A stretch of 64,000 nt of DNA, from NCBI RefSeq assembly GCF_006345805.1, contig NC_043000.1:124124001-124188000 (forward strand). The letters run 5' to 3'. The notes under the pieces are model-generated. The model was not told where the DNA came from. It searched no databases and saw nothing but the letters and a program-made list of their open reading frames with translations. The position numbers and the translations under genes are program-made. The stretch's first letter is position 1, and every line of letters starts with the position of its first letter. Below are positions 283-35,312 of this stretch, piece by piece. Origin of the DNA: Octopus sinensis (taxonomy: Eukaryota).

Positions 283-725
283 TCTCCAGGCCTACTTTCT
301 TCATCACATGACCAAGACGTCTCAGTTACCTGGCCCTTGTCTCATGAAGCGGTTTCCTATTTACTGCAGCTTGGGTCATTACTTCATTTGATATTTTGTC
401 TGTCTAATGAAGAACTGATGACCTGAACTGCAGAAAACAGGAAACTGCTTTGTGAGATAAAAAAGGTCAAGCAACTGACATTTCTTGGTCATGTGATAAA
501 GAAAGTGGGCCTAGAGATATTTAACAATGACTGAAAAGATTGAAGGGAAAAGAAGCAGAGGAAGGATGATATGGATATCAAGCTTGATGAAATGGTGAGA
601 AAAAAGAGGCATTAAACATCAGGAAGGGGAACTGTTACAGAAAACAAAGAACAGAGAATTGTGGCAGGACATGATTTCCTATGTCCTCTGTTAAATGGAC
701 ATGGCACCCAAAAGAAGGAGAAGGA
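283..725 (+). mobile_element. RTE-like LINE 3' fragment with an inverted 5' copy (hairpin ~283-515)
   Basis: Degenerate QLTFLGHVIKKVGLE...KIEGKRSRGR. 283-405 is a diverged reverse complement of ~407-515. Confidence 0.6.
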
Positions 726-1716: not shown

Positions 1717-2490
1717 CTGAAATCAAAATAAGTATTTAATTTTTAATTTAGATTTCTGTCTTTTCACCTCAAAGGCAACTGAGGATCAAAAACATGGAAC
1801 AATGCTTGCAGAACAATGGAATAAAAAGCACTAGGAATAATAGTATAGTAGTATTGCTTGACACAGCAAATAAATGTAAAATAATAGACATTAACCTAAA
1901 GGGGTTAGAATTTACTAAGAAATAAAAATAGCCAAATTTGGTGAATCTATATCATGGACAAATAGCTATTACAGTATATGTAATTTTAATAATTCCCCAA
2001 ATGTGGTACATCTTCTATTGAATAAGGAATTTGGATACTAAATTATCTGTCTCTACTGATTTAAAGTAAATAGATCTCTGTTGTGCTTGACAATGGGTAT
2101 TCAGTTGTTCAGTCAACTAATTTATATCTTTCAGATAATTCTCAAACAATAACAGCTCAAGACTGAACCTTTGATTTATAAGTATAATAGGCTTCAGCAC
2201 AGTTTCTGTCTGCTCAAGATATCTCATAGTACTCATGGTTATGATGCAAACTTCTTAATCAAATAAACATTCGATTGTATTCACTATTTAGTTGATGTTG
2301 TATGTGGGTCTTAACTAGCCAGTTAGTAGGAAGGTAGTCCCAAAGTAAGATTATCTACCCACTGCAGTTGTATGTCAGGGACTGTGAAGAGAATTCTGTT
2401 CTTTGTGGAAGACAGCTGAGACTTTGATTCTGATTGCACTGGGTCATACTACCACAAGTTGTCCATATGATAATCTGTAGTGTCAGATTA

Positions 2491-3039
2491 TGAGGGTGAG
2501 TTAAAAAGTAATGCCATTTTGTTTAGGACAGGTATAATTACCAACAGAGGAACATGTATCATACATCAAAATGAAGCTGGTCCTCTATGGATCACATCCC
2601 TACTTCTCAACATAGTCACCGTTTCTCTCAATAGCAATGTTCCACCTTCAAATGAGAGCATGTATCCCTGCCCCGAAAAATTCTGTTGACTGTTCTTTGA
2701 GCCACTTCTTCACTACAGTTTTCACCTCATCGTCACTGGAATAATGTTTGCCTCTCAAACCCTCTTTCATGGGGCTGAGGAGATGATAGTCCAGTGACGA
2801 GGAACTGAAAACTGTAGTGAAGAAGTGGCTCAAAGAACAGTCAAGAGAATTTTACGGGGCAGGGATACATGCTCTCATTTGAAGGTGAAACATTACTACT
2901 GAGAGAAATAGTGACTATGTTGAGAAGTAGGGATGTGATCCACAGAGGACCAGCTTCATTTTGATGTATGATACATGTTCTTGTGTTGGTAATTAAACTT
3001 GTCCTAAACAAAATGGCATTACTTTTTGACTCACCCTCG
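2491..3039. mobile_element. Mariner-derived foldback MITE (two inverted copies of the transposase 3' end)
   Basis: TA-flanked TIRs (Y)GAGGGTGAGT(T/C)AAAAAGTAATGCC, arms ~260 bp. The arm encodes DYHLLSPMKEGLRGKHYSSDDEVKTVVKKWLKEQSTEFF.AGIHALI, a mariner C-terminus. Shorter relatives at ~22432-22693 and its two duplicates. Confidence 0.85.
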
Positions 3040-5688
3040 TAGATTGGCTCATGCTTAACAACAGTACAGTTAAGTGCTGAAGAAGACAGATTAAGAATTA
3101 GAAATGTATTATGAAAGGAACAGCTTGGATAATGTGGGTGTGATTTGAAAATCAATCATTACCAGAAGGTAGGAATTTTACAAGATATTATATAAACAAT
3201 CATCAAGGTCATTTAACGTCTGTCTTCCATGTAGGCATGAGTTGGATAATTTTACAGGAGCTGGCAAGCCAGAGGACCGCACTAAGTTTTACTGTCTGTT
3301 TAGGCAGGTCTTCTAATGGCTGGATACCTTTCCTAATGCCATCCTCATCACAGAGTGGACTGGATGCTTTTTACGTGACACTAGCATCAGTGAGGTCTGC
3401 TTTGGTATGGTTTTCACAGCAGGATGCTACAGTTTCTATATGTGTGTGAATGGAGTGACTGAGATAGTGTAAGAGCCAGGAAGCTGACAATGTTACAAAA
3501 TGGACACAACCCATCGGAAGTGACACATAGGATAATGTAGTCTTAGATATGCTATCTGAATAAAGGGAAGGTCATGACTAGAATGGCTTATCATTGGTCT
3601 GACTGATCAGAGCTGACTTTGGGATAAACAATAATAGCCACATAGAATGTTTCTGATAAAGAGGAGGAGGTGGTGATGGTGGTGGTGATAGTAGTAGTAG
3701 TACATTCCTTTTTATTTTCTGTATAAAGTTCACAACAGTTATGTTTGTAGCTGCTGTAATATGTTTTAAATATCGTGTTACTGAGAGCTAATTAACTTGG
3801 TAAAAGTAAGTAAAATTGAACTATAATTAGAAAAAAGTAAAAAAAAAAAATAAAATTTGTCAATCAAAATAAATCAATCTGTAAAAAGAAAATCTCTAAA
3901 GTAACCCACTGAGAGATGCAGGGTCCACAACTTGCGCTAATTTCAAATGTTACAGGCATATATAACAAACAAATACAGTATTTTCTAGACAAAATTTTGT
4001 TGGTATGCAATAAAAACTGGAACTCAGTCAGGGCCATCTTTAAGTGTTCATATTTCAGTGCACCATTGTTGTATCAAAGAAGTACCTCACCACCACTTCA
4101 ATATTAAACCGTGTTCAATATTGGTTAGCTGTTGTTATAATTTGGCATATCTTTATCTTTTACTTGTTTCAGCCATTAGACTGCGGCCATGCTGGGGCAC
4201 TGCTTTGAAGAATTTTTAGTTGAATATATTGAGCCCAGTACTTATTTTTTAAAAATCTGGTACCTATTTTATCAGTCACTCTTTTTGGTGAACTGCTAAG
4301 TTTGTGATATAAAAACACCACCACAGGTTGTCAAGCAGTGGTGGGAGACAGACACACACACATCTCTCTCTCTCTCTGTATTATCATCATCATCATCATC
4401 GTTTAACGTCCGCTTTCCATGCTAGCATGAGTTGGACGAGTTGACTGAGGACTGGCGAACCAGATGACCGCACCAGGCTCCAGTCTTGATCTGGCAGTTT
4501 CTGTGGCTGGATGCCCTTCTTAACGCCAACCACTCCGATATATATATAATATATATATATATATACAATGGGCTTCTTGCAGTTTTAATTTATTAAATCT
4601 ACTCACAAAGTTTTGGTTGGCCTGAGGTTATAGTAGAACACAGTTGTCCAAAGTCCCACACATGGGACTGAACCCAGAGTCATGTTGTTGGGAAGCAAGT
4701 GTTTTACCACACAGCCACATCTTACTTTCATGGTTAGATGATAGAAATTGGGCAGTGGTTCAGTGTGATCTCCAGCCAGGATCCTCCCGCTGAGAAGGTG
4801 CTCTCTCCAGTCATCCCTCCAGGCTTCTTCAATCTTGATGTTTTCTTTTACTGATTTACAGAAAGGTTTTTCTTGATTTTTAATCTTGAGATGGTGGCCA
4901 GTGCATTAATTGTTTATTTTAAGATTGCGGTAATATTTGGATTCTAGATACAATGCAACCATTTTTAGGTGTTCTCTCGGCAGAGATGAGGTGGAGCAAT
5001 GACACTGATTTTGATAGCTAGGTCAAAGTGTGGATATAATCAATCATCATCATCATCGTTTAACGTCCGCTTTCCATGCTAGCATGGGTTGGATGATTTG
5101 ACTGAGGACTGGCGAACTAGATGGCTGCCAGTTTTATTTGTACAAGCACTACATGTTAGAGATGCTGTGGGTGGCAACTCAATATTTAGTGATATGAGGG
5201 TGTCGAGCTGGCAGAATCGTTAGCATGCCAGGTGAAATGCTTCACTGTATTTCGTCTGCTGTTATGTTCTGAGTTCAAATTCCACCGAGATCAACTTTGC
5301 CTTTCATCCTTTCAGAGTCAATTAAATAAGTATCAGTTACACACTGGAGTCAATGTAATCAACTTAATCCCTTTATCTGTCCTTGTTTGTTCCCTCTATG
5401 TTTAGCCCCCTGTGGGCAATAAAGAAATAAATATTTAGTGATGCTGTTGCCATAAGGTCAGTGCAGGTGTCATTAGCACAGTAGGAGATTCCTCCATTCT
5501 ATTTAACTTCCTAATCGGCAAACTTCTCTTTTCCAAAAAACTTTTAGTACTACTTTCTAGATATTCGAATACTAAGTACCACTCCAAGGCGCTTTGGATG
5601 TTTTTATGGATTGAGTAGTTTGTTATTGATCTGTATTTGCCGTGTTTGGTTTATTAGATGGTCGTTGAGTTAGAATAGTGGTCACTGA

Positions 5689-7063: not shown

Positions 7064-8436
7064 TTAAAGTTGTTGATGTCTGTCAGATAGTGATATTTCT
7101 ATGTTCAACTGCATAACCAAAGAATTTCGTTTACCTCAGCTAAATAATCCTCTTGGTGACTGGTTAAATGTGGAAAAAGAAAATTAAAAAAATATATAAA
7201 TCAGAACGAGATTTTCTACAGAAACGGTAACCTATATAAGTTGTTTAACATTCATTAAAGTTTCAACTCTTTCAGGCAATGACGTGTCTTAAAATAACTG
7301 AGGAAACCTGTGGTTGTTTGACCTACTAGAAATAGCAGCAAAATAATCGCTTAAATCACACCCTGCAGTAAAAAAAAAAAGGACAAGTTTGTCACAGTAG
7401 ATTTGGATACTAAAAAGACGGGATGACCAGGGCTTTAATCATGGGTGTTCATTCAATCAGAGTTAACCTGGAGTTAAACAATAACTTTATTTAATCAATA
7501 GAAACTCAATAATAAATTGTTATAGTATCGTATTGCTTATACTTCCTGTGGTTTCAATTTCTAGTGCTAAATAAAACTGACATACGCTACTAAATATAAA
7601 TGAAGGCAATTTAATTAAGGGTGTTTTACCACATAGCTTTTAAAGGTACACTGATCCATTAATGTGAGAGTTCTTGGTAAGGAGGCAGGGTAGATAACTC
7701 AGGTGTTGTTGTTTAGCCCTAGGTCAGCTCTTTCCAGGAGCCCTATAATCAAAGGTATTCAGCCGTACCAATCACAATGTCTTTTTTGTTTGTATATATA
7801 TATAATTAACCATTAGATTTTTCACTGTGATCGTTTATAGAAAGAAAAAAGACGATAGGGTATAATTTGAGGGTGCTATGACTGCTATTTCTAGCAGATC
7901 TGGTGATCACGTAGAGGCTGATGATACAGAGGGATAATTCAGTTTGTTTAGTTACGTCACCGTAGCGACTCACACTTTACCGATTCAAACATTTTAAGGC
8001 AAAACCGAACTTTTTTTGGTCGATACCAATTCTTTCCTATCTATTCATTTTAAAACATTGTCATAATGGAAAATGACACAGCGGAAGAATCAAAAGCTAT
8101 ACATGTTAAATAACAGTTTCACACAGGTCCTTTTGATCTCTGTTATTGTCAATTGTTGCTACTACTATCACCATGGAAGCTAACTTTTTCAAGTTATTCC
8201 TCGCTTCTGTATCGTAATGCAAACATTTGGCATCACCAACACAACTCTGCGAAACGGTATTTATCGTTTTCTGTTATCACAATTTATTGGAAATATCAGA
8301 TATAACAACTCCAATCTTTGAAAGCGTTAAATTTTATTTTATTTTACTCGTCTATTCTTGAAATGTTTTATTTATATTACAAGCTGTAGTCGGCTTTTTG
8401 TTTTTTTTTTTGCTTCTTATTTAATTGAATAATATC
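7064..8436. promoter_or_regulatory. Divergent SAYSD1/DNAJC27 intergenic region, probable bidirectional promoter and 5'UTRs
   Basis: The two start codons are 1373 bp apart on opposite strands. CpG is less depleted than in the flanks. CRE/ATF-like half sites TGACGT (~7280) and TTACGTCA (~7952). Transcription start sites cannot be seen. Confidence 0.5.
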
Positions 8437-9243
8437 ATGGAGAATACATCATATAATAAGCCTTCTAGGCTTCGGATTAAACTTATTACGATGGGAGAGA
8501 CAGAAGTTGGTAAAAGTTGCGTAGTAAAACGTTATTGTGAAAGAAGGTTCGTACATAAATATTTAACGACGATTGGAATTGATTATGGTGTGACTAAAGT
8601 GCAAATTAAAAATCGAGATGTTCGCTTGAATATATTTGATATGGCAGGGCATCCAATGTTTTATGAAGTCCGCAACGAATTTTATAGAGATGCTCAGGGA
8701 GCATTATTAGTGTTTGATTTGTCTAGAAGATGTACATTTGATTGCCTTGACCAATGGCTAATAGAAATGAAGAATGAAATGACCAATACGAAAGATGCGA
8801 ATAATATGGTTGTATGCGTATGTGGAAACAAAGTTGATAAAAGACGAGTTGTAAATGAATTAGAAGGACGTTTATGGGCCGACTCTCATGGCTTTCATTA
8901 TTTCGAGACTTCTGCACAAACCGGAGAAGGCATTGTTGAAATGTTCAATACCCTTTTAGGAGATATAGTTGCCACTATTGAAAATGGAGGTACTAAAATT
9001 CCTTTGGATACCCAATTGGGTTTCACAAAAGATCAAGTGGACTTGATACATCGTTTAAAGAATGCTAAATATGACCATGAACAACTCGGTGTGAATCCGA
9101 ATGCAGTAAAAGAAGACATCAACAAAGCTTATCGCCGATTAGCCGTACTTCTTCATCCCGATAAAAACATTGCCCCTGGTAGTGAAGAAGCCTTTAAAAT
9201 ACTGGTAGCTGCTCGTTCATCAATGTTAAAACGTTGTCTATAG
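8437..9243 (+). CDS. DNAJC27: DnaJ homolog subfamily C member 27 (RBJ; Rab-like GTPase + C-terminal J domain), single coding exon, 268 aa
   Basis: G1 GETEVGKS, G2 TIGIDY, G3 DMAGH, G4 NKVD, G5 ETSAQ, then a J domain with LLHPDKN. First ATG is at 8437 (the track starts at TTG 8425). AATAAA near 9346. Confidence 0.96.
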   Translation: MENTSYNKPSRLRIKLITMGETEVGKSCVVKRYCERRFVHKYLTTIGIDYGVTKVQIKNRDVRLNIFDMAGHPMFYEVRNEFYRDAQGALLVFDLSRRCTFDCLDQWLIEMKNEMTNTKDANNMVVCVCGNKVDKRRVVNELEGRLWADSHGFHYFETSAQTGEGIVEMFNTLLGDIVATIENGGTKIPLDTQLGFTKDQVDLIHRLKNAKYDHEQLGVNPNAVKEDINKAYRRLAVLLHPDKNIAPGSEEAFKILVAARSSMLKRCL

Positions 9244-22085: not shown

Positions 22086-23673
22086 TATTATTATATATAT
22101 ATATATATATATATATATTGGCCAACAGCTTTGTCTCAGACCAGTTATGATGGAACTGTGTCAGTAATCAGGTTGCAGATAGTGCAACAAAAATTTTGGC
22201 CTAAATAATTCTTTTATTCTTTTACTTGTTTCAATCATTTGACTGCAGCCATGCTGGAGCACTGCCTTTAGTGGAACGAATTGACCCCGAAATTTATTCT
22301 TTGTAAGCCTAGTACTTTTTCTGTCTATCTTTTTTACTGAACCGCTAAGTTATGGGGACGTAAAAACACCAACTTCCATTGTCAAGCAATGCTGGGGGAC
22401 AAACACAAACATGCATACATACATATATATACGAGGGTGGGTCAAAAAGTAATACAATTTTGTTTAGGACAGGTATAAGAAGTGGCTCAAAGAACAGTCA
22501 ACAGAATTTTACAGGGCAGGGATACATGCTCTCATTTGAAGGTGGAACATTGCTATTGAGGGAAACAGTGACTATGTTGAGAAGTAGGGATGTGATCTGC
22601 AGAGGACCAGCTTCATTTTGGTGTATGATACATGTTCCTGTGTTGGTAATTATACCTGTCCTAAACAAAATGGCATTACTTTTATACCCTCATATATATA
22701 ACAGGCTTCTTTCAGTTTCCACCTATCAAATCCACACTTTGGTCGGCCCAAGGCTATAGTGGAAGACACTTGCTCAAGGTGCCACGCAGTGGGACTGAAC
22801 TTGGAACCATGTGGTAGAGAGAAACTGTGTGGAAGCCTATTATATGTGTGTGTACCTTCTCACCACCAGCTGAAAACTGATATTGGTTTGTTTATGTCCC
22901 TGTATCTCAGCAGCTTGGCAAAACCAGACATTAAAAAAATAAGCGCCTGGGTCAATTTAATAACACATGAAACTTTTAAATTTCAAATTATTTTGGAACT
23001 GTGCCAAAGACCAAGTTACAGTTGTATCTCCTGAAATAATTCACAATTAATTTAAAATAATTCTAGGTGTTATTAAATGTTGTTTGTTTTGTTGTTGTTG
23101 TGGTTGTTTGTTCCTTCTCAAGTCATGTCTGACTCAAAAGGACCAGTTCCCAGTTTCATTGGCGTATAGGTACCCCACCTGGACGGGACGCCAGTCCGTC
23201 GCAGATGAGCTGCTAGATGCAGGAGGAGAGACTGAGAGAAAGTTGTGACGAATGAGTCAGCTGAAGTTCATCGTTACCTTCTGCTGGAGTCGTGTGGAGC
23301 TTAGGTGTTTTGCTCATAAACACATACATCACCCGGTCTGAGATTCGAACACGCGACCCCTCGACCGTGAGTCCGCTGCTCTAACCACTAGGCCATGTGC
23401 CTCCACGGTGTTATTAAATGGCTAGAATGACTCTCAGATGTTGTTCCTTCAGCTCCCGCACATGAAGTCAGATCAAGTTACTTGCTACACAACAGTGAAA
23501 TATAATATTTGTGATTTTTTTATAATGAAGAGATTGAAGATATATTTATTTTTCTCTACTTTTTGTTGAAGTCATGTCTTAGTTATTAGAAAGTTCACTC
23601 TGCTTGATATTGTTTTTACAGAGAAAAACATATGGAAGGAATTAAATCATAACTTTGAAAGTTGAAATCTTAC

Positions 23674-23738
23674 CTATAAGTGTTGAAGTGAAGATAAATA
23701 TAGAAAATGGGACGGCCTTATCTGATTCACCAACACAC
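23674..23738 (-). CDS. OATP 65-nt exon, duplicate copy 3
   Basis: Sequence and splice sites identical to 27067-27131. Confidence 0.6.
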
Positions 23739-25364
23739 CTGGAACAGAATATTTAGATAAACTGATTATGATATTTAGAAAATTATTTTTGAGTTATATA
23801 TATATATATTGGCCAACAGCTTTGTCTCAGACCAGTTATGATGGAACTGTGTCAGTAATCAGGTTGCAGATAGTGCAACAAAAATTTTGGCCTAAATAAT
23901 TCTTTTATTCTTTTACTTGTTTCAATCATTTGACTGCAGCCATGCTGGAGCACTGCCTTTAGTGGAACGAATTGACCCCGAAATTTATTCTTTGTAAGCC
24001 TAGTACTTTTTCTGTCTATCTTTTTTACTGAACCGCTAAGTTATGGGGACGTAAAAACACCAACTTCCATTGTCAAGCAATGCTGGGGGACAAACACAAA
24101 CATGCATACATACATATATATACGAGGGTGGGTCAAAAAGTAATACAATTTTGTTTAGGACAGGTATAAGAAGTGGCTCAAAGAACAGTCAACAGAATTT
24201 TACAGGGCAGGGATACATGCTCTCATTTGAAGGTGGAACATTGCTATTGAGGGAAACAGTGACTATGTTGAGAAGTAGGGATGTGATCTGCAGAGGACCA
24301 GCTTCATTTTGGTGTATGATACATGTTCCTGTGTTGGTAATTATACCTGTCCTAAACAAAATGGCATTACTTTTATACCCTCATATATATAACAGGCTTC
24401 TTTCAGTTTCCACCTATCAAATCCACACTTTGGTCGGCCCAAGGCTATAGTGGAAGACACTTGCTCAAGGTGCCACGCAGTGGGACTGAACTTGGAACCA
24501 TGTGGTAGAGAGAAACTGTGTGGAAGCCTATTATATGTGTGTGTACCTTCTCACCACCAGCTGAAAACTGATATTGGTTTGTTTATGTCCCTGTATCTCA
24601 GCAGCTTGGCAAAACCAGACATTAAAAAAATAAGCGCCTGGGTCAATTTAATAACACATGAAACTTTTAAATTTCAAATTATTTTGGAACTGTGCCAAAG
24701 ACCAAGTTACAGTTGTATCTCCTGAAATAATTCACAATTAATTTAAAATAATTCTAGGTGTTATTAAATGTTGTTTGTTTTGTTGTTGTTGTGGTTGTTT
24801 GTTCCTTCTCAAGTCATGTCTGACTCAAAAGGACCAGTTCCCAGTTTCATTGGCGTATAGGTACCCCACCTGGACGGGACGCCAGTCCGTCGCAGATGAG
24901 CTGCTAGATGCAGGAGGAGAGACTGAGAGAAAGTTGTGACGAATGAGTCAGCTGAAGTTCATCGTTACCTTCTGCTGGAGTCGTGTGGAGCTTAGGTGTT
25001 TTGCTCATAAACACATACATCACCCGGTCTGAGATTCGAACACGCGACCCCTCGACCGTGAGTCCGCTGCTCTAACCACTAGGCCATGTGCCTCCACGGT
25101 GTTATTAAATGGCTAGAATGACTCTCAGATGTTGTTCCTTCAGCTCCCGCACATGAAGTCAGATCAAGTTACTTGCTACACAACAGTGAAATATAATATT
25201 TGTGATTTTTTTATAATGAAGAGATTGAAGATATATTTATTTTTCTCTACTTTTTGTTGAAGTCATGTCTTAGTTATTAGAAAGTTCACTCTGCTTGATA
25301 TTGTTTTTACAGAGAAAAACATATGGAAGGAATTAAATCATAACTTTGAAAGTTGAAATCTTAC

Positions 25365-25429
25365 CTATAAGTGTTGAAGTGAAGATAAATATAGAAAATG
25401 GGACGGCCTTATCTGATTCACCAACACAC
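25365..25429 (-). CDS. OATP 65-nt exon, duplicate copy 2
   Basis: Sequence and splice sites identical to 27067-27131. Which copy is used is unknown. Confidence 0.6.
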
Positions 25430-27066
25430 CTGGAACAGAATATTTAGATAAACTGATTATGATATTTAGAAAATTATTTTTGAGTTATATATATATATAT
25501 ATATATATATATTGGCCAACAGCTTTGTCTCAGACCAGTTATGATGGAACTGTGTCAGTAATCAGGTTGCAGATAGTGCAACAAAAATTTTGGCCTAAAT
25601 AATTCTTTTATTCTTTTACTTGTTTCAATCATTTGACTGCAGCCATGCTGGAGCACTGCCTTTAGTGGAACGAATTGACCCCGAAATTTATTCTTTGTAA
25701 GCCTAGTACTTTTTCTGTCTATCTTTTTTACTGAACCGCTAAGTTATGGGGACGTAAAAACACCAACTTCCATTGTCAAGCAATGCTGGGGGACAAACAC
25801 AAACATGCATACATACATATATACGAGGGTGGGTCAAAAAGTAATACAATTTTGTTTAGGACAGGTATAAGAAGTGGCTCAAAGAACAGTCAACAGAATT
25901 TTACAGGGCAGGGATACATGCTCTCATTTGAAGGTGGAACATTGCTATTGAGGGAAACAGTGACTATGTTGAGAAGTAGGGATGTGATCTGCAGAGGACC
26001 AGCTTCATTTTGGTGTATGATACATGTTCCTGTGTTGGTAATTATACCTGTCCTAAACAAAATGGCATTACTTTTATACCCTCATATATATAACAGGCTT
26101 CTTTCAGTTTCCACCTATCAAATCCACACTTTGGTCGGCCCAAGGCTATAGTGGAAGACACTTGCTCAAGGTGCCACGCAGTGGGACTGAACTTGGAACC
26201 ATGTGGTAGAGAGAAACTGTGTGGAAGCCTATTATATGTGTGTGTACCTTCTCACCACCAGCTGAAAACTGATATTGGTTTGTTTATGTCCCTGTATCTC
26301 AGCAGCTTGGCAAAACCAGACATTAAAAAAATAAGCGCCTGGGTCAATTTAATAACACATGAAACTTTTAAATTTCAAATTATTTTGGAACTGTGCCAAA
26401 GACCAAGTTACAGTTGTATCTCCTGAAATAATTCACAATTAATTTAAAATAATTCTAGGTGTTATTAAATGTTGTTTGTTTTGTTGTTGTTGTGGTTGTT
26501 TGTTCCTTCTCAAGTCATGTCTGACTCAAAAGGACCAGTTTCCCAGTTTCATTGGCGTATAGGTACCCCACCTGGACGGGACGCCAGTCCGTCGCAGATG
26601 AGCTGCTAGATGCAGGAGGAGAGACTGAGAGAAAGTTGTGACGAATGAGTCAGCTGAAGTTCATCGTTACCTTCTGCTGGAGTCGTGTGGAGCTTAGGTG
26701 TTTTGCTCATAAACACATACATCACCCGGTCTGAGATTCGAACACGCGACCCCTCGACCGTGAGTCCGCTGCTCTAACCACTAGGCCATGTGCCTCCACG
26801 GTGTTATTAAATGGCTAGAATGACTCTCAGATGTTGTTCCTTCAGCTCCCGCACATGAAGTCAGATCAAGTTACTTGCTACACAACAGTGAAATATAATA
26901 TTTGTGATTTTTTTATAATGAAGAGATTGAAGATATATTTATTTTTCTCTACTTTTTGTTGAAGTCATGTCTTAGTTATTAGAAAGTTCACTCTGCTTGA
27001 TATTGTTTTTACAGAGAAAAACATATGGAAGGAATTAAATCATAACTTTGAAAGTTGAAATCTTAC

Positions 27067-27986: not shown

Positions 27987-28191
27987 ATGAGGGATTGCTG
28001 AAAAGTTCCTGGCTTTGGGTAAAAGAAAATACAGGAGGATCAGTTAATTATGATTTTATTCAACATATTCCCCTCTCAGATTCATACACTTATTGCAGCA
28101 GTCCTTCAGTTTTTCTAAGCCCGCTAAAAGAACTCTAAACAGACCTTTCATGAAAACCTTAAAGCCAGGTACTTTTCAGCACCCCTTTGTA
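27987..28191. mobile_element. Mariner-like MITE
   Basis: TIRs GAGGGATTGCTGAAAAGTTCCTGGCTTT / AAAGCCAGGTACTTTTCAGCACCCCT in a microsatellite context. Confidence 0.65.
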
Positions 28192-28239
28192 TGTATGCAT
28201 ATGTGTGCATGCATGTGTGTGTGTATGATATGATATATA

Positions 28240-28280
<41 letters not shown>

Positions 28281-28289
28281 TAGCCGACA

Positions 28290-28363
28290 GGTTTTGGCAT
28301 CTGATGATATGCCATAAAGCTAAACCCTTTATGGATGTGAAACCTAAGGTAATCCCATAAACC
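28290..28363 (+). ncRNA. Type-I hammerhead ribozyme motif in a short island between (TA)n tracts
   Basis: GGTTTTGGCAT-CTGATGA-tatg-CCATAAAG-ctaaacc-CTTTATGG-atgt-GAAAC-CTAAG-GTA-ATCCCATAAACC. Perfect 8-bp stem II; extended stem I with one mismatch and one bulge. Confidence 0.7.
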
Positions 28364-28446
28364 AGCCTTATCTAACTTTAATATTATACATATATATATA
28401 TATAAAATGAAAATAAATGTTTCCTTCTCCAGCCATGCCAGGCTCA

Positions 28447-28586
<140 letters not shown>

Positions 28587-28587
28587 C

Positions 28588-29690
28588 TTGCTCAGAGTAA
28601 AAAGTAGACTGTATGACGCATGTGTGCAAAAAGCCATGCAACATGGGAGTGAAACATGGGACATGACTGCTGAGAGTATGCGTAAGCTTGCAAGGAATGA
28701 AGCTAGTATGCTCTGCTGGATGTGTAATGTCAGTGTGCATACATGACAGAGTATAAGCACCCTGAGAGAAAAGTTGGGCATAAGAAGCATCAGATGTGGT
28801 ATGCAAGAGAGACGACTGTGCTGGTATGGTCATGTCTTGCATATGGATGAGGATAGGTGTGTGAAAAAGTGTCACATCCTAGCAGTAGAGGGAACCTGTG
28901 GAAGAGGTAGGAAGACCTGGGATGAGGTGGTGAAGCATGACCTTCAAATATTCGGCATCAGCAAGGCGATGACAAGTGACTGAGACCTTTGGAGATTATC
29001 TCTGCTTGAGAAGACCCAGCAAGCCAAGTGGGACCATAACAGTGGCCTATGCCAGTGCAGCATAACCAGCCCATTTAAGAGTACTCTTCAATCATTGGGC
29101 AATAAACTGCATTTGCAAAGACATGTTGAGGCAAGTAAAGTCGTCGTGACCAATGACAGTGCCGCCTGTTTGGTGCCCATGCTTGTGGCACGTACAAAGC
29201 ACCATTCAAGCATAGTTGATGCCAGTGTCAATTGACTGGTCCCGTACTGGTGGCACATAAAAAGCACCATTTGAGTGTGATCATTGCCAGTGCCGTCTGA
29301 CTGGCTCTTGTGCTGGTGGTATGTAAAAAGCACCATTTGAACATGGTCAATGCTAGTGTCGCCTCACTGGTCCTATACCAGTGGCACATAAAAAGCAACA
29401 TTCAAGCATGGTTGCTACCAGTGCTGCCTGACTAGCTCCCATGCCACTGGCATGTAAAAAGCACCATTCAATCATGGTCGATGCCAGTACTACCTGACTG
29501 GCACTTATGCCAGTGGCATGTAAAAAGCACCCACTACACTCTCGGAGTGGATGGTATTAGGAAGGGCATTCAGCTGTAGAGTCCTTACCAGATCAGATTG
29601 AAGCCTGGTGTAGCCTCCTGGCTTGTCAGTCCTCAGTCAAACCATCCAACCCATGCCAGCATGGAAGGCAGACGTTAAACGACAATGATG

Positions 29691-29692
<2 letters not shown>
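28588..29692 (+). mobile_element. RTE-clade LINE 3' end with a 66-bp tandem-repeat 3'UTR and (ATG)n tail
   Basis: [22 protein letters not shown]...[20 protein letters not shown]...GRGRKTW, then about 6 repeats of ~66 nt and the tail ...GCATGGAAGGCAGACGTTAAACGA. Tail-only copies at ~4382-4537(-), 13637-13930(-), 44685-45030(-), 50115-50530(+), 51095-51473(+) and 52300-53003(+). Confidence 0.8.
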
Positions 29693-29734
<42 letters not shown>

Positions 29735-30848
29735 TGCTAGTAATGCACTGAATTAACTAGAATGTCTGACTCGTTTGATGGTTTAAAAGTTAGTAATAAA
29801 GGAAATGTTTTAAATATAATTCCACCATCATATTTAGCTTGATACAAGCAGAATATCAGGAAAGTTAATGTATACAGCAGCCAAAGCCCAGAAGTATATA
29901 TTTACTTGTTTAACATTTAAAGTGCTAGGACGACATGCCCAAAACAACAGACAATGACTGTGGTTGAGAAGCATTACTAAATCATATGCAAACACAAATA
30001 ATAAGTCAGTTTTAAAGGTGGTCACATGATTCCTAGGTAATGCATTGACTTAGAGGGTTTAATGGATTTAAAGTTCCAAGTGTGAACCATCCAAAACTGA
30101 CATTTTTCTTTTTTCTCTTTTCTTTGGTCTAAAAGAAAAACCTTGCTTCTTTTACTTTTGGAAGTTTTATTAGGACATCAACATTATCATCATCGTCATT
30201 TAATATCCATTTTCCATGCTGGCATTGATTGGATAGTTTAATAGGATCTAGCAAGCTGCAGGGCAGTGACAAACTTCAATGCCAGCCATTCCCAATACCT
30301 ATTTCTTTACTACCCACAAGGGGCTAAACACAGAGGAGATAAACAAGGACAGACAGATGGATTAAGTCAATTATATCGACCCCAGTGCGTAACTGGTACT
30401 TAATTTATTGACCCCGAAAGGATGAAAGGCAAAGTCAACCTCAGCGGAATTTGAACTCAGAACGTAACGGCAGACGAAATACCGCTAAGCATTTCGCCCG
30501 GCGCGCTAACGTGTCTGCCAGCTTGCCGTCCCAATACCAACCACATTTTAGTGTGTACAGGTTCTTTTTGTTTAGTAAAATACTTGGTTGTGGGTTTGTA
30601 TCTCAAAAATAGTGTGGAGCTTACCTTGAACAAACTACCGAACCCCATCTAGTACTTCATAACTAGCAGTGGAGGAGGCAAGAAATTGAGAAATTATGTC
30701 TTGATAGTAAATTAACCAGATCCTGTCTCATGTTTATCTGTCTGTAGAGCTCTAAACAAATTCTCTTCTCTGGTAATAAATAAATCATTATGCATATCAT
30801 AAACTAATATTTATTTAAATGATAAAAGAAAAACATGCAACAACTTAC

Positions 30849-31006
30849 TTTATTAAAGCAGTGATAACTGAGCTAAAACTTATGCAGCTGATAAAAGCTC
30901 TTATTGATAAGACAAGTGCTAGATAAATTCCTCCATAACATGTATTTGAACATATACCAGGTTTTGCCATTTGAGTTTTACCAACGCATGAACAATTAGA
31001 AAACGT
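30849..31006 (-). CDS. OATP exon (TFSNCSCVGKTQMAKPGICSNTC...ITALI)
   Basis: NCSC...A..G.C...C motif. 158 nt, ttgcag|ACG ... AA|GTAAGT, phase 0/2. Confidence 0.9.
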
Positions 31007-31337
31007 CTGCAATAAAAATATCAATAAATAGCATTGTAAACTCATAATTGTAAAATTAAATTTGTGATACTTGTAATTGAAAAGGCTTTACATTAAATTG
31101 TAATTTTTTTTAAAGAATGAATGAGAAGCTAACTTGATAGGACTTGTAGAACAGATACTGTATGTCCATAATATTAATTGTATGAGAAAATAGCAAGAAA
31201 CTAAACCAGTTGTTCTGAACCATTCTTTGTGTATGGACCCCTTTGATTCCTATTTCACTCTTTTGGACCCCCATAGCCATTTGATGTTTAAAAAAAGCTG
31301 ATTGCTTTTTCATAATTAAATATTATTAGGAATTGTA

Positions 31338-31893
31338 CATTATTTACATTATTTACATTCAACGGATATTTGTCCTCATCTTGTTTGTTGTTAACACAAC
31401 GTTTTGGCTGATATACCCTCCAGCCTTCATCAGGTGTCTTGGGGAAATTTCGAACCTGGGTTCTCATTCCTAAGGTATTTTTCAATGTTGTTATTATTAT
31501 TATTATTTTTATTATTATTATTATTATTGTTCAGGTCACTGCTTGGAATTGAAATGGAATCTTGGGTTAGTAGCCCGTGCTCTTAACCACTACACCATAT
31601 GCCCGTGGGCATAGTGGTTAAGAGTGCGGACTACTAACCCCAAGATTCTGAGTTCGATTCCAAATAGTGACCTGAACAATAATAATAATAATAATAAAAA
31701 TAATAATAATAACATCAAAAAATACCTTAGGAATGAGAACCCAGATTCAAAATTTCCCCAAGACACCTGATGAAGGCTGGAGGGTATATCAGCCGAAACG
31801 TTGTGTTAACAACAAACAAGATGAGGACAAATATCTGTCAAATGTAAATAATGTAAATAATGTACATAATTCCTCATCTTTTAAATATAGAAC
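31338..31893. mobile_element. Head-to-head inverted pair of a tRNA-headed, hammerhead-containing short element
   Basis: Arms ~31335-31600 and ~31608-31866 are reverse complements. The centre has A box (TGGTGTAGTGG / TAGTGGTTAAG) and B box (GAGTTCGATTCC). A 17-bp direct repeat TATTATTAGGAATTGTA flanks the element (31321-31337, 31894-31910). Confidence 0.75.
31763..31806 (+). ncRNA. Minimal hammerhead motif lacking a stem III loop (dimer-type)
   Basis: ACAC-CTGATGA-a-GGCTG-gagggtatat-CAGCC-GAAAC-GTT-GTGT, with palindromic AACGTT. The inverted copy at 31394-31437 has GAAA changed to AAAA. Confidence 0.7.
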
Positions 31894-33372
31894 TATTATT
31901 AGGAATTGTATAAAAAAATATTAAAACATTTTGTTTATTGTATAAGTATAACCAAGTTATTTCACATAAACTTTAACGACAAACTCTTATGTGGACACCA
32001 TCCCCTGAAGGTCATATGGACACCACCTGAGAACCACTGAACTAAACAGAAGATGTGATAGGTATTTTGGTACAAACAAACAACATAAATTATTCTGGAA
32101 TATTAAAGAATATTTAAAGTATTTAGGAGAAGCAGAAATTTATCAGAAAGAGTGATATGATTTTTTCATGTAACAAAAATATTTATCAATAAATGCAGTC
32201 AATCACAAGAATATCATTAAAATAATGTGACTAATTGAACCAAATGAGCTGCAAGGCATAAGTCATAACATGTAGAGTACCCCAAGGTTCCATACTGGGT
32301 CCTGTACTCATCTGTACGTACTTTCATTATCTTACATATTACTTTAATGCTCTTGGTTTAAATCAGATGACCATTTAGCCTCTAAGCCATTACTCATTTC
32401 CTTAATTTATTGTTGATTTTCACATTAATTATTTCTAATTAAGAGTATGGTTTTAATTAGTATGCAAAACTTTGATTCTGGTTATTAGTAAAATATCAAT
32501 CATATAAGAAAATAGTCATAAATTTGTTATTTAGCATCCAGGAAGGCAATAAGCTGGCAGGGTTGTTAGAGCATCAGAAATACTGCTGTATAGCATTAGT
32601 TCTGGTCTTCAGGCTCTGAGTTCAGACCCTATTGAAATCAAATTTAATAATAATGAAATTATTGTAAACAGTGCTCAGGTGCACCACAACTTGTCAAAAG
32701 TGCGTATAAAGTACATGCAGTAATGTACAAATGTCTGGAAAGTGAACAATGTATGAGTCAGATACATGCTTGCGTGTGTATGGAGGGAGAAAATCAGGTG
32801 TTGTGTTGGCGAATCTCAGGAAGCATGGAAATTTTGAAGGATGCAGTGCTTCGACAACCAACAACTGATGCCGGCAGTTTGTTCCATGCTTCAGCAACTC
32901 TAAGCGTGAAAAAATGTTTCCGAAAGTCTTGGAAGCTATGCTGTTTTCTGACTTTGTAAACATGTCCATTAGCCCCCAGGGTAGCCTGCATTAAATAAAC
33001 TCATTACCAATGGTAGTCTATCCATGACCATTCCTTCATTTCTTTTTATCCAAGACCACATTAGCAGATGTCTCCTTCTTTTTAAGTCTCTAAGGTATGA
33101 CATATAGGAGATTTAATTGCTGTTTCTAGCAGGTCATGCAACTATAGAGTAACTCCCTCACTAGTCTGAGTAACTTAGTTGTTGATTGAATTGATAAATG
33201 CCTGATCAAGTGGGTCAAATCACCTTCAAGTATTATATAATCCAGTTACTTAAAACCTTATTCATGACAGTGCAGTTTTGATCTGTTGGACATTCAGAAA
33301 AGAGAAAACAAAGAAAACAGAGAAAAGGTTGAAAGCAAATAAAACGGTATTATTACTATTAAAAAAACATAC

Positions 33373-33544
33373 ATTGGTTTTGATATTGTGATATTGACAG
33401 CCTGCATAGCATGGTGATTTGAATGACCTTCCATCTGCTCCACATACTGGTTCATAATCATGTTCATTACACTGTAGCTTGAGGGAACTGATTTGAAAAC
33501 AGCTCAACTGGTTTAAATCTTGTTGTAAGGTAACTGGAGTAGGG
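33373..33544 (-). CDS. OATP Kazal-like extracellular loop exon (CNEHDYEPVCGADGRSFKSPCYAGC)
   Basis: Kazal-type motif PVCG.DG..F.SPC.AGC. 172 nt, aatag|C ... AAT|GTATGT, phase 2/0. Confidence 0.93.
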
Positions 33545-33809
33545 CTATTGAGAAGAAATAATAAAAAAGCAAGTTACTGTTTGACACTTTGAACAATATC
33601 AATAATATTAACAAAAATATTCACAAAATATCATAATTTCATTGTCATCAGTTTACAAGGCTGTATTCATGAGTGATGAGGGGCAGGGGTCTCATGGAAT
33701 GCTAGAATTGCAGGTGCTGGTAAAGTAATGTGCCACAAAAGGGGAACAGTAGGAAAAAAACCCAAACTTGCTATTTTCAGTTCAGTTTGTGTGCCTGTTT
33801 TAACTTAAC

Positions 33810-34540
33810 AGTAATTTGCGTTGGACAAAACACATCGCTAAAATTGTCAAGAAGGTTGAGGGTGTCTTGGCATCACTCACCAAATCCTTTGTGAGCTGCT
33901 CTCCAGCTATCTATCTGCGGCTTTATATAGCTATGGTAAGACCTCACCTGGAATTTGCATCACCGGTCTGGAACCCCTATCTTGCCCAGGATATCAATTG
34001 TCTGGAAGCTGTTCAGCGACATGCAACCAAAAGAATACCCTCCATCAGGCATTTGCCATATTCTGAATGCCTTACTTCCCTGGGCATGGACACATTGAAA
34101 CTCCGACGTCTGGCAGCTGACTTGGCAGACACCCATAAAATTATCAACGATCTTACAAACAATAACTCCGAGCACCTTTTCGAACTCCACCTGTCTAACA
34201 CCCATGGACATATTTACAGAGTCAGAAAACAGCACAGCTCCCATGACTTTCGGAAACATTTTGTCATGCTGAGAGTTGCTGAAGCATGGAACAAACTGCC
34301 GGCATCAGTTGTTAGTTGTCGGAGCACTGCATCCTTCAAAATTTCCATGCTTTCTGAGATTCGCCAACACTACACCTGATTTTCTCCCCTCCACACACAC
34401 ACAAGCATGTATCTGACTCATACATTGTTCGCTTTCCAGACATTTGTACATTACTGCATATACTCTATACACACTTTCTGACAAGTTGTGGGTGCATCTG
34501 AGCACTGTATACAATAATTTCATTATTATTATTATTATTA
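33810..34540 (+). mobile_element. CR1/L2-group LINE 3' fragment (RT thumb + 3'UTR + (ATT)n tail)
   Basis: LYIAMVRPHLEFASPVWNPY...LEAVQRHATK...FRKHF...RV...WNKLP. Shorter copies at ~19880-20280(-), 32647-32975(-), 42060-42640(-, older) and 49600-49873(+). Confidence 0.88.
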
Positions 34541-35312
34541 TTAACCATTTTGTTACTGTATTTGTTTTGAGATGCTCTGTATTTCTCTCAATTATTTTAG
34601 ACATAGCCAAGAATTTAGTAAAATAACTTAGTTATCATTAAGCTAGTGTTAGAAACATTAATTCTGACTAAGGTTTAGTGGAAGATTTTAATTCAAAACT
34701 TATGAAAACAAGACATTTGTACTACAGAGCCAGAGCCGGCTTCAGCCAGGTTGGTAATGAAAGGGTTAAGGTCACAAATGTTGGGTATTGACTGAAAGGG
34801 TATGACTGCAAATAAAAGCAGCTGAAATGGGGTTCCTCTGAATAAGCTCTGGAGTAATATTAGTCAACAGGGTGCATAGCTTGAAGACCAGGGAATCCTT
34901 CTAGGAAATTTGGCTACTATTTCTGGCAGATTGAACAACCACTTATTGACCTCTATCTCTGTCTCTGTCTGTCTGTCTGTCTCTCTTTCTCTCTCTGAGT
35001 ATACCAAGTAATAAAAATACCATGTAATGGCTTACATAAGAGACAATCTAACAAGTATCTCATTAAGTAAATTATGCTGAATATGCTCCTTTGTTACTCT
35101 TAAAATGAAACTGCACTCTTCAAAACTTGCACTGAGAATAAGGTCAAGATAAAATTTCTACCTGATTTTATAGCAAGTTGATGCAGGTAGTTTATCCCAT
35201 CCTCATGCAATTGTTCATGCAATTGAAAAAAACTGCATTATTTATGGGATGACCCAGTACATAGTCTTATTTTCAGGTAATAAATATTTTCCTTTTGAAA
35301 ATTTTGAAAGTA

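Follow-up and report, generated by a model that had tools for sequence, protein, structure and literature searches.

The window analysed here, a stretch of 64,000 nt from Octopus sinensis (contig NC_043000.1, positions 124,124,001 to 124,188,000), carries a 556-bp palindrome that consists of two inverted arms, is flanked by a 17-bp target duplication and lies inside a MITE. The features of the locus, in window coordinates, are as follows.

31199-31206, no strand: left copy of the 8-bp target duplication of the host MITE, AACTAAAC, repeated exactly at 32040-32047
31207-32039, no strand: host hAT-like MITE, bounded by 12-bp terminal inverted repeats and interrupted by the inserted PLE pieces
31321-31337, + strand: left copy of the 17-bp target-site duplication, an exact match to the right copy
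31338-31604, - strand: left arm, an inverted pLTR copy without tail, with head, (AAT)n, ATG at 31467, hammerhead and first 43 codons
31394-31437, - strand: left minimal type-I hammerhead, expected to be inactive owing to G12A at 31405
31531-31604, - strand: left tRNA-Arg(ACG)-like head, A box (31597-31587) intact, B box (31556-31545) mutated
31601-31610, no strand: fold-back junction GCCCGTGGGC, the element's own palindrome, -6 to +4 of tRNA +1
31607-31893, + strand: right arm of the palindrome
31607-31674, + strand: right tRNA-Arg(ACG)-like head, with a 7-nt deletion in the A box, B box (31650-31661) intact
31675-31714, + strand: (AAT)n tract, 5' UTR of the right arm
31733-31894, + strand: codons 1-54 of the PLE ORF, counted from the likely ATG, including hammerhead and tail
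31763-31806, + strand: right minimal type-I hammerhead, core intact, palindromic AACGTT replacing stem III, predicted cleavage after 31802
31862-31893, + strand: PLE "tail" of about 30 nt, on one side only, the left arm ending before it
31894-31910, + strand: right copy of the 17-bp target-site duplication, an exact match to the left copy
32040-32047, no strand: right copy of AACTAAAC

A first-pass annotation had described head-to-head arms bracketed by a 17-bp target duplication within a hAT MITE, and both the coordinates and an empty MITE copy (L183), which matches the two window flanks with no insertion between them, agree with this description. Another related MITE copy lies at L008. The host element shows terminal inverted repeats as well as an 8-bp target duplication, and it is on the latter that we take it to belong to the hAT type. 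The arms are 94% identical over 192 nt in one alignment and 87.7% over 570 nt in another. The fold-back junction was found again at many other loci, an adjacent inverted piece accompanies 55 of 90 head-anchored copies, and exact flanking repeats of 7-14 nt were detected in 29 of 58 family copies by a target-duplication scan without a shuffle control.

The right-arm hammerhead reads ACAC-CTGATGA-A-GGCTG..CAGCC-GAAAC-GTT-GTGT and has the loop-less, dimer-type form recognized earlier, with AACGTT in the place of stem III. Across 65 hammerhead copies the catalytic core is intact in 32, and the sole shared non-CpG polymorphism of the core is at N7 (45 T and 19 A of 65). The G12A change that had been singled out in the left arm is present but in no way special, as it is ordinary CpG decay, found in 9 of the 65 copies, with the partner C-to-T change in 12 of the 65. 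Stems II and I are predicted; the minimum free energy fold of the monomer differs from the catalytic fold and is no stabler than that of shuffled sequences (z=-0.74). Exact 35-mer searches of the 2.72-Gb genome returned 1,932 matches for the hammerhead, 979 for the head and 0 for reversed control patterns; these matches are therefore not due to chance. An Rfam search of positions 28000-35000 matched neither hammerhead nor tRNA and gave only microsatellite-driven miRNA matches. Among the metagenome relatives, which are distant (30-55% in the best segment), L195 shows a comparable loop-less hammerhead and, by eye, nothing resembling a tRNA head.

The arm in coding Penelope-type elements

The arm is almost certainly the pLTR of a Penelope/Poseidon-type element encoding a reverse transcriptase (RT) and a GIY-YIG endonuclease (EN), and not an independent SINE. 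It follows the ORF stop codon in 29 of 30 endonuclease-anchored loci (25 of 26 independent loci once the query locus and three near-duplicates are dropped) and follows the ORF in 26 of 30 protein-anchored loci. Because the junction is constant, independent insertion of the ORF-linked copies is excluded. Each unit, of about 2.6 kb, has the order ORF stop, 29 nt, tRNA-like head, (AAT)n, ATG, hammerhead, tail and rest of the ORF, and the units are arranged as partial tandems, with junctions running from ORF end through the arm to ORF start at L176, L179, L194/L276 and L266. Moreover, the frame of the arm runs on into the RT region in three ORF-linked copies (L183, L277 and L279), and the homolog P0009 aligns across the hammerhead-encoded peptide. 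The hammerhead does not close a non-coding RNA, as had been supposed at first, but is located in codons 11-24 of the ORF. Among 32 copies, the two commonest distances from ATG to tail are 161 nt (10 copies) and 152 nt (5 copies), 9 nt apart, and the 3' ends of the family fall mainly into two zones separated by about 40-50 nt.

The RT matches Pfam RVT_1 (E=1.3e-7). A natural open frame of 551 aa (L288) aligns to a GIY-YIG-annotated homolog; the homolog P0064 is 42% identical over 548 aa, its GIY-YIG domain (505-562) aligning with the C-terminus of the element; a Pfam search with the element's own fragments did not score GIY-YIG. By eye, the RT-EN linker contains no zinc-finger in the L288 translation and alignment, which excludes Neptune and Nematis. 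A PDB search gave no significant match. A single ORF with RT and C-terminal GIY-YIG, partial-tandem pLTRs, a minimal type-I hammerhead, an inverted 5'-truncated neighbour copy and a tail at one end are all found, as in endonuclease-bearing PLEs of the Penelope/Poseidon type. An RT and GIY-YIG element sharing hammerhead and tail, which the first-pass annotation had proposed to look for, thus exists, and it carries the entire arm, including the head. Of that annotation's SINE parasitising Penelope, the use of Penelope machinery stands; a separate SINE with a borrowed tail is not supported, as the coding element carries the whole arm.

All 30 protein-anchored loci retrieved belong to this one tRNA-headed family, and tblastn over 714 kb of genomic DNA found no sister PLE families with other heads. 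The polymorphisms of solo copies recur, about equally often, in ORF-linked ones. When 68 rows of solo copies were compared with 21 of ORF-linked copies, a comparison of modest power in which some rows are misaligned, none of the non-CpG sites showed a difference at P<0.05, and both sub-lineages of linked variants occur in both kinds of copy. The head often has deletions in ORF-linked arms, where only 1 of 25 carries it exactly.

The tRNA-like head and the 5' edge of copies

Judged by its sequence profile, the head is tRNA-derived and closest to tRNA-Arg(ACG) among the 11 anticodon types compared, a set without isotypes such as Asn, Ile, Gln and His. It scored 17.3 bits with Arg(ACG) and 8.2 bits with the next type. 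The tRNA-Ser(GCU) origin suggested at first was rejected, with 5.3 bits and an 8-nt gap where the long variable arm should be. Global alignment of the 75-nt head with tRNA-Arg(ACG) gave 53 matches and, in 714 kb of genomic DNA, the best matches of the head profile outside the family were the tRNA-Arg(ACG) genes of the genome. The OR SINE families of octopus are likewise of tRNA-Arg origin. ARAGORN found no tRNA in the window. The A and B boxes reported earlier both exist, but the head quoted was a composite, the A box being intact only on the left and the B box only on the right; neither window arm has both, compared with 18 of 45 family heads, so that at the family level the A/B-box head typical of tRNA-derived SINEs is present. 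The head is usually accompanied by the hammerhead part: of 90 head-anchored copies, 78 extend into the body in the stretch retrieved, which argues against the chance nesting of the two that had been considered, and several of the remaining 12 have another repeat directly after (AAT)n. No head-only SINE, and no head with another tail, was found in the 714 kb of genomic DNA.

Among 90 hammerhead-anchored loci, 46 reach the head start, of which 38 end at -7 to +12 of tRNA +1 and 8 continue into the ORF, with no ends at -8 to -42. Copies that extend as far as the head start therefore stop there in about 83% of cases, and the stop rate is 0.057 per nt at this edge vs 0.004 within the head. The pass rate of 8/46 was used because the head-anchored one (about 7/90) is biased and under-counts ORF-linked copies. 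Of the upstream pLTRs, 4 stop and 4 pass (P=0.06 for the contrast with the unbiased sample); an earlier P of 0.005 rested on the biased head-anchored sample. The upstream sequence ATAATTGCCC is absent from every non-ORF junction among 104 heads, suggesting that the templates ended at about -6/-7. This pile-up of copy ends points to an RNA 5' end near -6. Two observations count against a defined start: the ends are spread over -7 to +12 with no single base (13 of the 38 at -7/-6 and 8 at +1), and a hairpin, CCATA-AT-TGCC-CACG-GGCA-TATGG, is predicted exactly at the 5' boundary of the head. An RNase P-type cut at +1, considered for the 8 ends there, was rejected, given that base pairing in the acceptor and T stems looks poor and that the edge at -6/-7 would be left unexplained. 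In about 5 of 27 loci, inspected by eye, there seems to be a second truncation hot spot, some 550 nt farther upstream within the ORF.

Probable promoter function and competing explanations

The tRNA-like piece is likely the transcription start of the element and probably one for RNA polymerase III. With some confidence, we favour the reading that the repeat of this PLE contains a Pol III promoter of tRNA type and gives rise to solo repeats that resemble SINEs and number in the thousands; the Pol III drive proposed at first is plausible and has gained indirect support. The motif TTTATAA lies 29 nt upstream of tRNA +1 in 24 of 28 ORF-linked copies and places a TATA-like motif, which includes the upstream stop codon, about 28 nt before the putative start near -6; this position is also compatible with Pol II, which counts against Pol III. 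No TTTT is common to the copies over about 2,370 nt of ORF, where 4.3 are expected, but the absence of TTTT across the unit of about 2.6 kb is weak evidence (P about 0.01-0.1), with codon-aware P values of 0.05-0.28 per copy and with GGGG runs equally absent from the ORF. Six other retroelement-like open frames in the DNA examined contain 12 TTTT vs about 12 expected; one control frame of 408 codons has 0 vs 2.1 expected, and L195 is too T-rich to serve as a control. The sequence sets listed as containing the element are all contigs, none of them recorded as RNA. Read depth over the element in four contig runs of unrecorded type tracks genomic copy number, has no pile-ups at starts or ends and is uninformative on transcription. 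A Pol III RNA would be uncapped and would not explain how the protein is translated.

Under the favoured reading, in tandem source copies the A and B boxes, together with TTTATAA at the upstream stop codon, would start the RNA at about G(-6). The PLE protein would nick AT-rich DNA, and RT would start internally, at either of two sites shortly after the hammerhead, as shown for Poseidon_Ac. After some 290 nt the cDNA would reach the RNA 5' end and run off, leaving a SINE-like solo repeat; its self-complementary end (GCCC..GGGC) would fold back and prime a second arm, giving the palindrome. Solos, having neither the TATA upstream nor the ORF sequence downstream, would rarely become sources. Cleavage by the hammerhead, for which a second copy or the protein would be needed, would remove the start codon. 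In its most far-reaching form, which we consider tentative and rather doubtful, a coding Penelope would be transcribed end to end by Pol III from a captured tRNA-Arg gene, combining a tRNA-type promoter in the pLTR, a stop-codon TATA, a 2.6-kb TTTT-free unit and a hammerhead within the initial codons by which the RNA would change between the roles of message and template.

The same pLTR could instead be transcribed by Pol II, with the start at about -6 set by the TATA-like stop-codon motif and the tRNA piece being a captured 5' UTR or a TFIIIC-binding helper, which we regard as unlikely. A Pol II promoter needs neither of the two boxes, yet the start lies 13 nt before an A box of consensus type, judged by the general consensus for A and B boxes, and the B box follows at tRNA spacing; the missing common TTTT also speaks, weakly, against Pol II. 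On the other hand, TTTATAA about 28 nt upstream of the start suits Pol II and a capped RNA would solve the translation problem. In the available text on D. virilis Penelope (PMC2377424), moreover, the pLTR contains an internal promoter and the transcription start. A candidate splice acceptor, TTTCCCCAAG, is found here immediately 5' of hammerhead stem I, a position that matches the end of the D. virilis intron.

Quite improbable is the explanation that no special RNA start exists and that RT, copying tandem or read-through RNA, stalls and folds back at the boundary hairpin. The hairpin predicted at the 5' boundary of the head, the frequent deletions in ORF-linked arms, as if RT struggled there, and the apparent second hot spot in the ORF are all in line with stalling, but stalling would be expected where the hairpin begins on its 3' side (about +10), whereas 13 of 38 ends lie past the loop at -7/-6 with none at -8 to -42, and the upstream AT bulge is never included in fold-back junctions. 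Least of all do we expect an independent Pol III SINE lineage that uses PLE machinery and whose head also entered the coding element: the tRNA-type head with A and B boxes, the target duplication, the roughly 83% of copies ending at the head start and the estimated totals of 7,800 heads vs 1,800 ORF ends would fit it, but the head sits at a fixed junction in the coding partner, from which a SINE head should be absent, the 3' half of the arm is in-frame coding sequence, solo and ORF-linked copies share both sub-lineages with no non-CpG difference (at modest power), and the 714 kb contained no free SINE in which this head is joined to a different tail.

Should Pol III drive the element, nature would have provided a system in which to test whether a retrotransposon protein can be encoded by a long uncapped Pol III RNA, which role PLE hammerheads have downstream of a start codon and in what way SINE heads arise. 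Were transcription by Pol III to run end to end, the element would be its own SINE factory, a snapshot of a tRNA head joining a coding element. If the head is only a passenger, the locus amounts to a truncated PLE insertion of the usual kind whose 5' UTR is a curiosity. In any case, thousands of copies record where the element RNA seems to begin, and automatic annotation would misfile the solo copies of the family as SINEs.

Relation to known elements

Inverted partial copies, the one-sided tail and loop-less hammerheads are published hallmarks of PLEs; the tRNA-derived head in a coding element is the unusual part. In the portions of the reports available, Poseidon_Ac of Anolis (PMC11167929) and D. 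virilis Penelope (PMC2377424) resemble the octopus element in the ORF with RT and C-terminal GIY-YIG, partial-tandem pLTRs, inverted 5' copy, one-sided tail of 30-40 nt, two 3' end zones, AT-rich targets, a hammerhead overlapping the ORF start and a transcription start expected in the pLTR. Internal RT initiation, the tail and the ORF-overlapping hammerhead are described for Poseidon_Ac (PMC11167929). The octopus pLTR differs in beginning with a tRNA-Arg-like A/B-box head and (AAT)n, such a head not being mentioned in those portions, and D. virilis Penelope differs in its 75-bp intron and its internal promoter, likened there to those of Drosophila LINEs (PMC2377424). As far as the account of PLE minimal hammerheads was accessible (PMC4209133), the octopus ribozyme itself is the same, sharing type I, a short stem I, the extra nucleotide between 9 and 10.1, G10.1-C11.1 and the palindromic 15.2-16.2; here it is found to be protein-coding. 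Opposite-strand hammerhead pairs 100-700 bp apart were already noted there as truncated PLEs.

Schistosome Sm-alpha and Sj-alpha (PMC6765202, PMC2770079) also combine tRNA-related sequence with a hammerhead and are apparently transcribed by Pol III, but are non-coding, often tandem and tRNA-Gln-related, with the promoter at the 3' end of cleaved units; a coding partner with the same head is not described in the sections available. The TRIMp3 elements Cassandra, Helenus and Ajax (PMC10886601) similarly bear a small-RNA-derived Pol III promoter in a retroelement terminal repeat. They are non-autonomous LTR elements, and their author, in the part of the text accessible, holds that any autonomous partner has to be transcribed by Pol II and would probably not have this repeat. 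Pol III heads were thus known from non-coding SINEs and TRIMs, with coding partners assumed to use Pol II, whereas the octopus coding PLE carries the head itself. Animal non-LTR retrozymes (bioRxiv 10.64898/2026.07.22.740005) are likewise non-coding hammerhead repeats related to pLTRs; they form head-to-tail tandem arrays, with no tRNA head reported in the available part of that preprint, whereas the octopus copies are mostly dispersed solos and inverted pairs. No description of a tRNA-headed pLTR was found in the literature searched, and Repbase, Dfam or supplementary repeat libraries (including that of PMC13282606) may already hold the family. The octopus SINEs OK, OR1 and OR2 (Ohshima and Okada 1994, as cited in PMC4758252 and PMC5804259) are tRNA-derived repeats as well; OR2 is listed as a CORE-SINE, which does not fit the arm.

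Identity of the palindrome arms

The features of the window that bear on the palindrome are as follows.

31207-32039: host MITE, 833 bp, bounded by terminal inverted repeats and a duplication of 8 bp
31321-31337 and 31894-31910: target duplication, 17 bp, two exact copies flanking the palindrome
31338-31893: palindrome, 556 bp, both arms
31601-31610: fold-back junction of the two arms
31733 (+): ATG opening a frame of 54 codons through hammerhead and tail

A related MITE copy at locus L183 aligns to the sequence on either side of the palindrome but carries no insert there, and this empty copy, together with the exact duplications, bears out the first-pass annotation, which had described a palindrome inserted into a MITE with a 17-bp target duplication. 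The hammerhead, the arm junction and the G12A change were likewise all found in place, but the head that had been described is a composite: both an A box and a B box exist, but the left arm alone keeps the former intact and the right arm alone the latter.

Exact 35-mers from the hammerhead and head occur 1,932 and 979 times in the genome searched (reversed controls, 0), and exact matches to the ORF end 433 times. Division by exact-match rates from independent samples (8/52, 8/64 and 6/25) puts the totals at roughly 12,500 hammerheads, 7,800 heads and 1,800 ORF ends. The arm is a genome-wide repeat, with copies estimated in the thousands.

Endonuclease-like coding sequence lies directly 5' of the arm in 2 of the 30 best arm matches. 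Loci found with that sequence run on into the arm in 29/30 cases (25/26 without the query locus and three near-duplicates), as do 26/30 loci found with a homologous protein. In loci found with the ORF 5' region the arm precedes the ORF, and four such loci are true tandems in which the arm stands between an ORF end and an ORF start. Long copies carry an RT matching Pfam RVT_1 and a C-terminal region that aligns to the GIY-YIG domain of the homologous protein P0064 (42% identity over 548 aa); fragments of the element itself received no GIY-YIG score from Pfam. A coding RT plus GIY-YIG element sharing the arm, of the kind the annotation had suggested looking for, was thus found, and the arm is, with very little doubt, the pLTR of a coding Penelope-like element (PLE). 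The same pLTR layout is described for EN+ Penelope-like elements (bioRxiv 10.1101/2021.04.23.441226). No zinc finger was seen by eye in the linker, which fits the Penelope/Poseidon type.

The coding half of the arm and the hammerhead

In ORF-linked copies (L183, L277 and L279) the frame opened by the arm ATG extends into the RT region, and the alignment with the homolog P0009 begins at the peptide that the hammerhead encodes (49% over 377 aa); the arm therefore consists of a 5' UTR of ~125 nt, comprising head and (AAT)n, followed by the first ORF codons. The predicted cut after 31802 falls 70 nt 3' of the start codon. The hammerhead of Poseidon_Ac also overlaps the ORF start, with its cut 26 nt after the ATG; there, the ribozyme is described as requiring the protein for cleavage and as not needed for insertion in vitro, while RT begins at two internal sites, which bound the tail (PMC11167929). 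By comparison, the 3' ends of the present family fall in two zones. An inverted piece adjoins 55/90 head-anchored copies; truncated PLEs have already been described with hammerheads that lack a loop and with pairs on opposite strands at distances of 100-700 bp (PMC4209133).

The catalytic core is present at the family level, as the annotation had supposed, being intact in 32/65 copies. G12A, found in 9/65, is CpG decay, and the sole common non-CpG core variant in these 65 copies is the free N7 position. The hammerhead folded as a monomer was not more stable than shuffled sequences.

Directly 5' of hammerhead stem I, 31753-31762 (+) is pyrimidine-rich and ends in AG; no splice donor for this candidate acceptor was identified. 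The D. virilis Penelope intron is reported to end just before stem I (PMC4209133). Locus L047 (~320-360, minus strand) holds another minimal hammerhead, unrelated to that of the arm and with AACGTT at its end, in a T-rich repeat that has relatives at other loci; no tRNA-like head was seen in this repeat, which is probably another PLE family.

The tRNA-like head and the start of copies

A profile built from 30 natural heads was compared with 11 anticodon types, and its top non-family scores were the genome's tRNA-Arg(ACG) genes (17.3 bits; Arg(TCT) reached 8.2 and Ser(GCT) 5.3). The alignment starts at tRNA +1 and the variable loop is short; the tRNA-Ser origin originally proposed is not supported. 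Since 11 anticodon types were compared and the anticodon stem is similar to Lys(TTT), Arg(ACG) is the best source of those tested rather than a proven one. On contig C2, an array of ~90 tRNA-Arg(ACG)-type motifs, mostly at ~206-bp spacing, occupies ~3.12-3.16 Mb (L159-L164). In ORF-linked copies, the 16 nt before tRNA +1 look like the first 17 nt of the head in reverse complement (e.g., L049, oriented 2020-2055), as if the head had been captured together with its own fold-back.

Among the first 90 loci listed on contig C1, picked by hammerhead motif alone, the furthest 5' point lies in the ORF in 8, at -7 to +12 (relative to the first tRNA nucleotide) in 38, inside the head in 13, in (AAT)n in 19 and later in 12, with none at -8 to -42. 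The stop rate per nt is 0.057 at the head start and 0.004 inside the head; 5' ends pile up at the head start. Of the 104 heads whose +1 is intact, 36 fell into the class of fold-back junctions resembling that of the window, and upstream ATAATTGCCC was absent from non-ORF junctions; the automatic classes missed about four mutated ORF-linked copies recognised by eye. RNA probably starts at about G(-6). Such a template 5' end would lie 13 nt 5' of the A box and ~28 nt 3' of a TATA-like motif; the first T of TTTATAA, which contains the ORF stop, is 29 nt before the head start in 24/28 copies. A cDNA ending at about -6 would be self-complementary and could prime its own second arm, which would account for the junction at 31601-31610. 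A possible second 5'-truncation hot spot was noticed by eye ~550 nt upstream of the ORF stop (L037, L038, L047, L057 and L058).

The A and B boxes, which we take to match the consensus, stand at tRNA spacing and point to Pol III; overall, a tRNA-type Pol III start at the pLTR head is somewhat favoured. A Pol III transcript has to avoid TTTT. Aligned natural copies totalling 56 kb (69 segments) contain 17 scattered runs, with 0 at columns where T is commonest versus 4.3 expected, and a further 43 kb holds 17 scattered runs; six other retroelement-like frames have 12 versus ~12 expected. Taking into consideration the codon-aware P (0.05-0.28 per copy), the absence of GGGG as well and one control frame also without TTTT, this lack is compatible with Pol III, not compelling. 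It is doubtful that Pol III transcribes the whole coding unit. Public sequencing runs yielded no usable RNA evidence. A Pol II start at the pLTR, which the position of the TATA-like motif would also suit and which has a parallel in the LINE-like internal promoter described for D. virilis Penelope (PMC2377424), is unlikely given the spacing of the boxes. That the pile-up marks an RT stall at the head boundary rather than an RNA start is less likely still. A hairpin predicted there and frequent deletions in ORF-linked arms speak for a stall and against an RNA start; upstream pLTRs pass the head start more often (4/8) than the hammerhead-anchored sample, but not significantly (P=0.06).

The annotation had taken the arm for a separate SINE parasitising Penelope machinery, which is very improbable because solo arms (those without an adjoining ORF) and ORF-linked arms show common variants in comparable proportions (68 vs 21 rows) and have both linked sub-lineages in common, the junction to the ORF is fixed and the 3' half of the arm is coding. 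With modest power, this favours solos arising as by-products of the coding element, which works like a SINE factory. The head, expected to be absent from a SINE's coding partner, is carried by the coding PLE, and a search of 714 kb of DNA revealed no free SINE bearing it. Head and hammerhead part travel together, as first described, rather than by chance nesting: the body follows in 78/90 heads, while among the remaining 12 several have another repeat directly after (AAT)n. Other repeat families repeatedly follow this tract directly (L219, L224, L231, L256, L258, L204 and L228), which suggests that it is a target for them.

Related repeats and other features of the window

A tRNA-related sequence joined to a hammerhead, as in the present arm, is described in schistosome Sm-alpha and Sj-alpha (PMC6765202, PMC2770079). 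Small-RNA promoters are reported in the terminal repeats of TRIMs, which are non-autonomous and have coding partners argued to be transcribed by Pol II (PMC10886601), whereas here the tRNA-like head is in the coding PLE. Non-coding repeats derived from pLTRs have been described as retrozymes (bioRxiv 10.64898/2026.07.22.740005). Among the papers found by literature searches, none describes a coding PLE whose pLTR has a tRNA head; Repbase, Dfam, article supplements or the 1994 octopus SINE paper may already list the repeat under a different name.

Elsewhere in the window, a further head-to-head palindrome (2489-3041, 557 bp, 89%) has related pieces at 22427-22683, 24118-24374 and 25819-26075; its ends look mariner-like. 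Three tandem copies of a ~1.7-kb unit at ~22200-26200, with identical repeat matches spaced 1,691-1,701 bp, may reflect either a genuine duplication or an error of assembly. Finally, an uninterrupted 272-codon frame at 8425-9240 (+), intron-free over this stretch, encodes Ras-family GTPase and C-terminal DnaJ domains, a layout which we take to be that of DNAJC27/RBJ.
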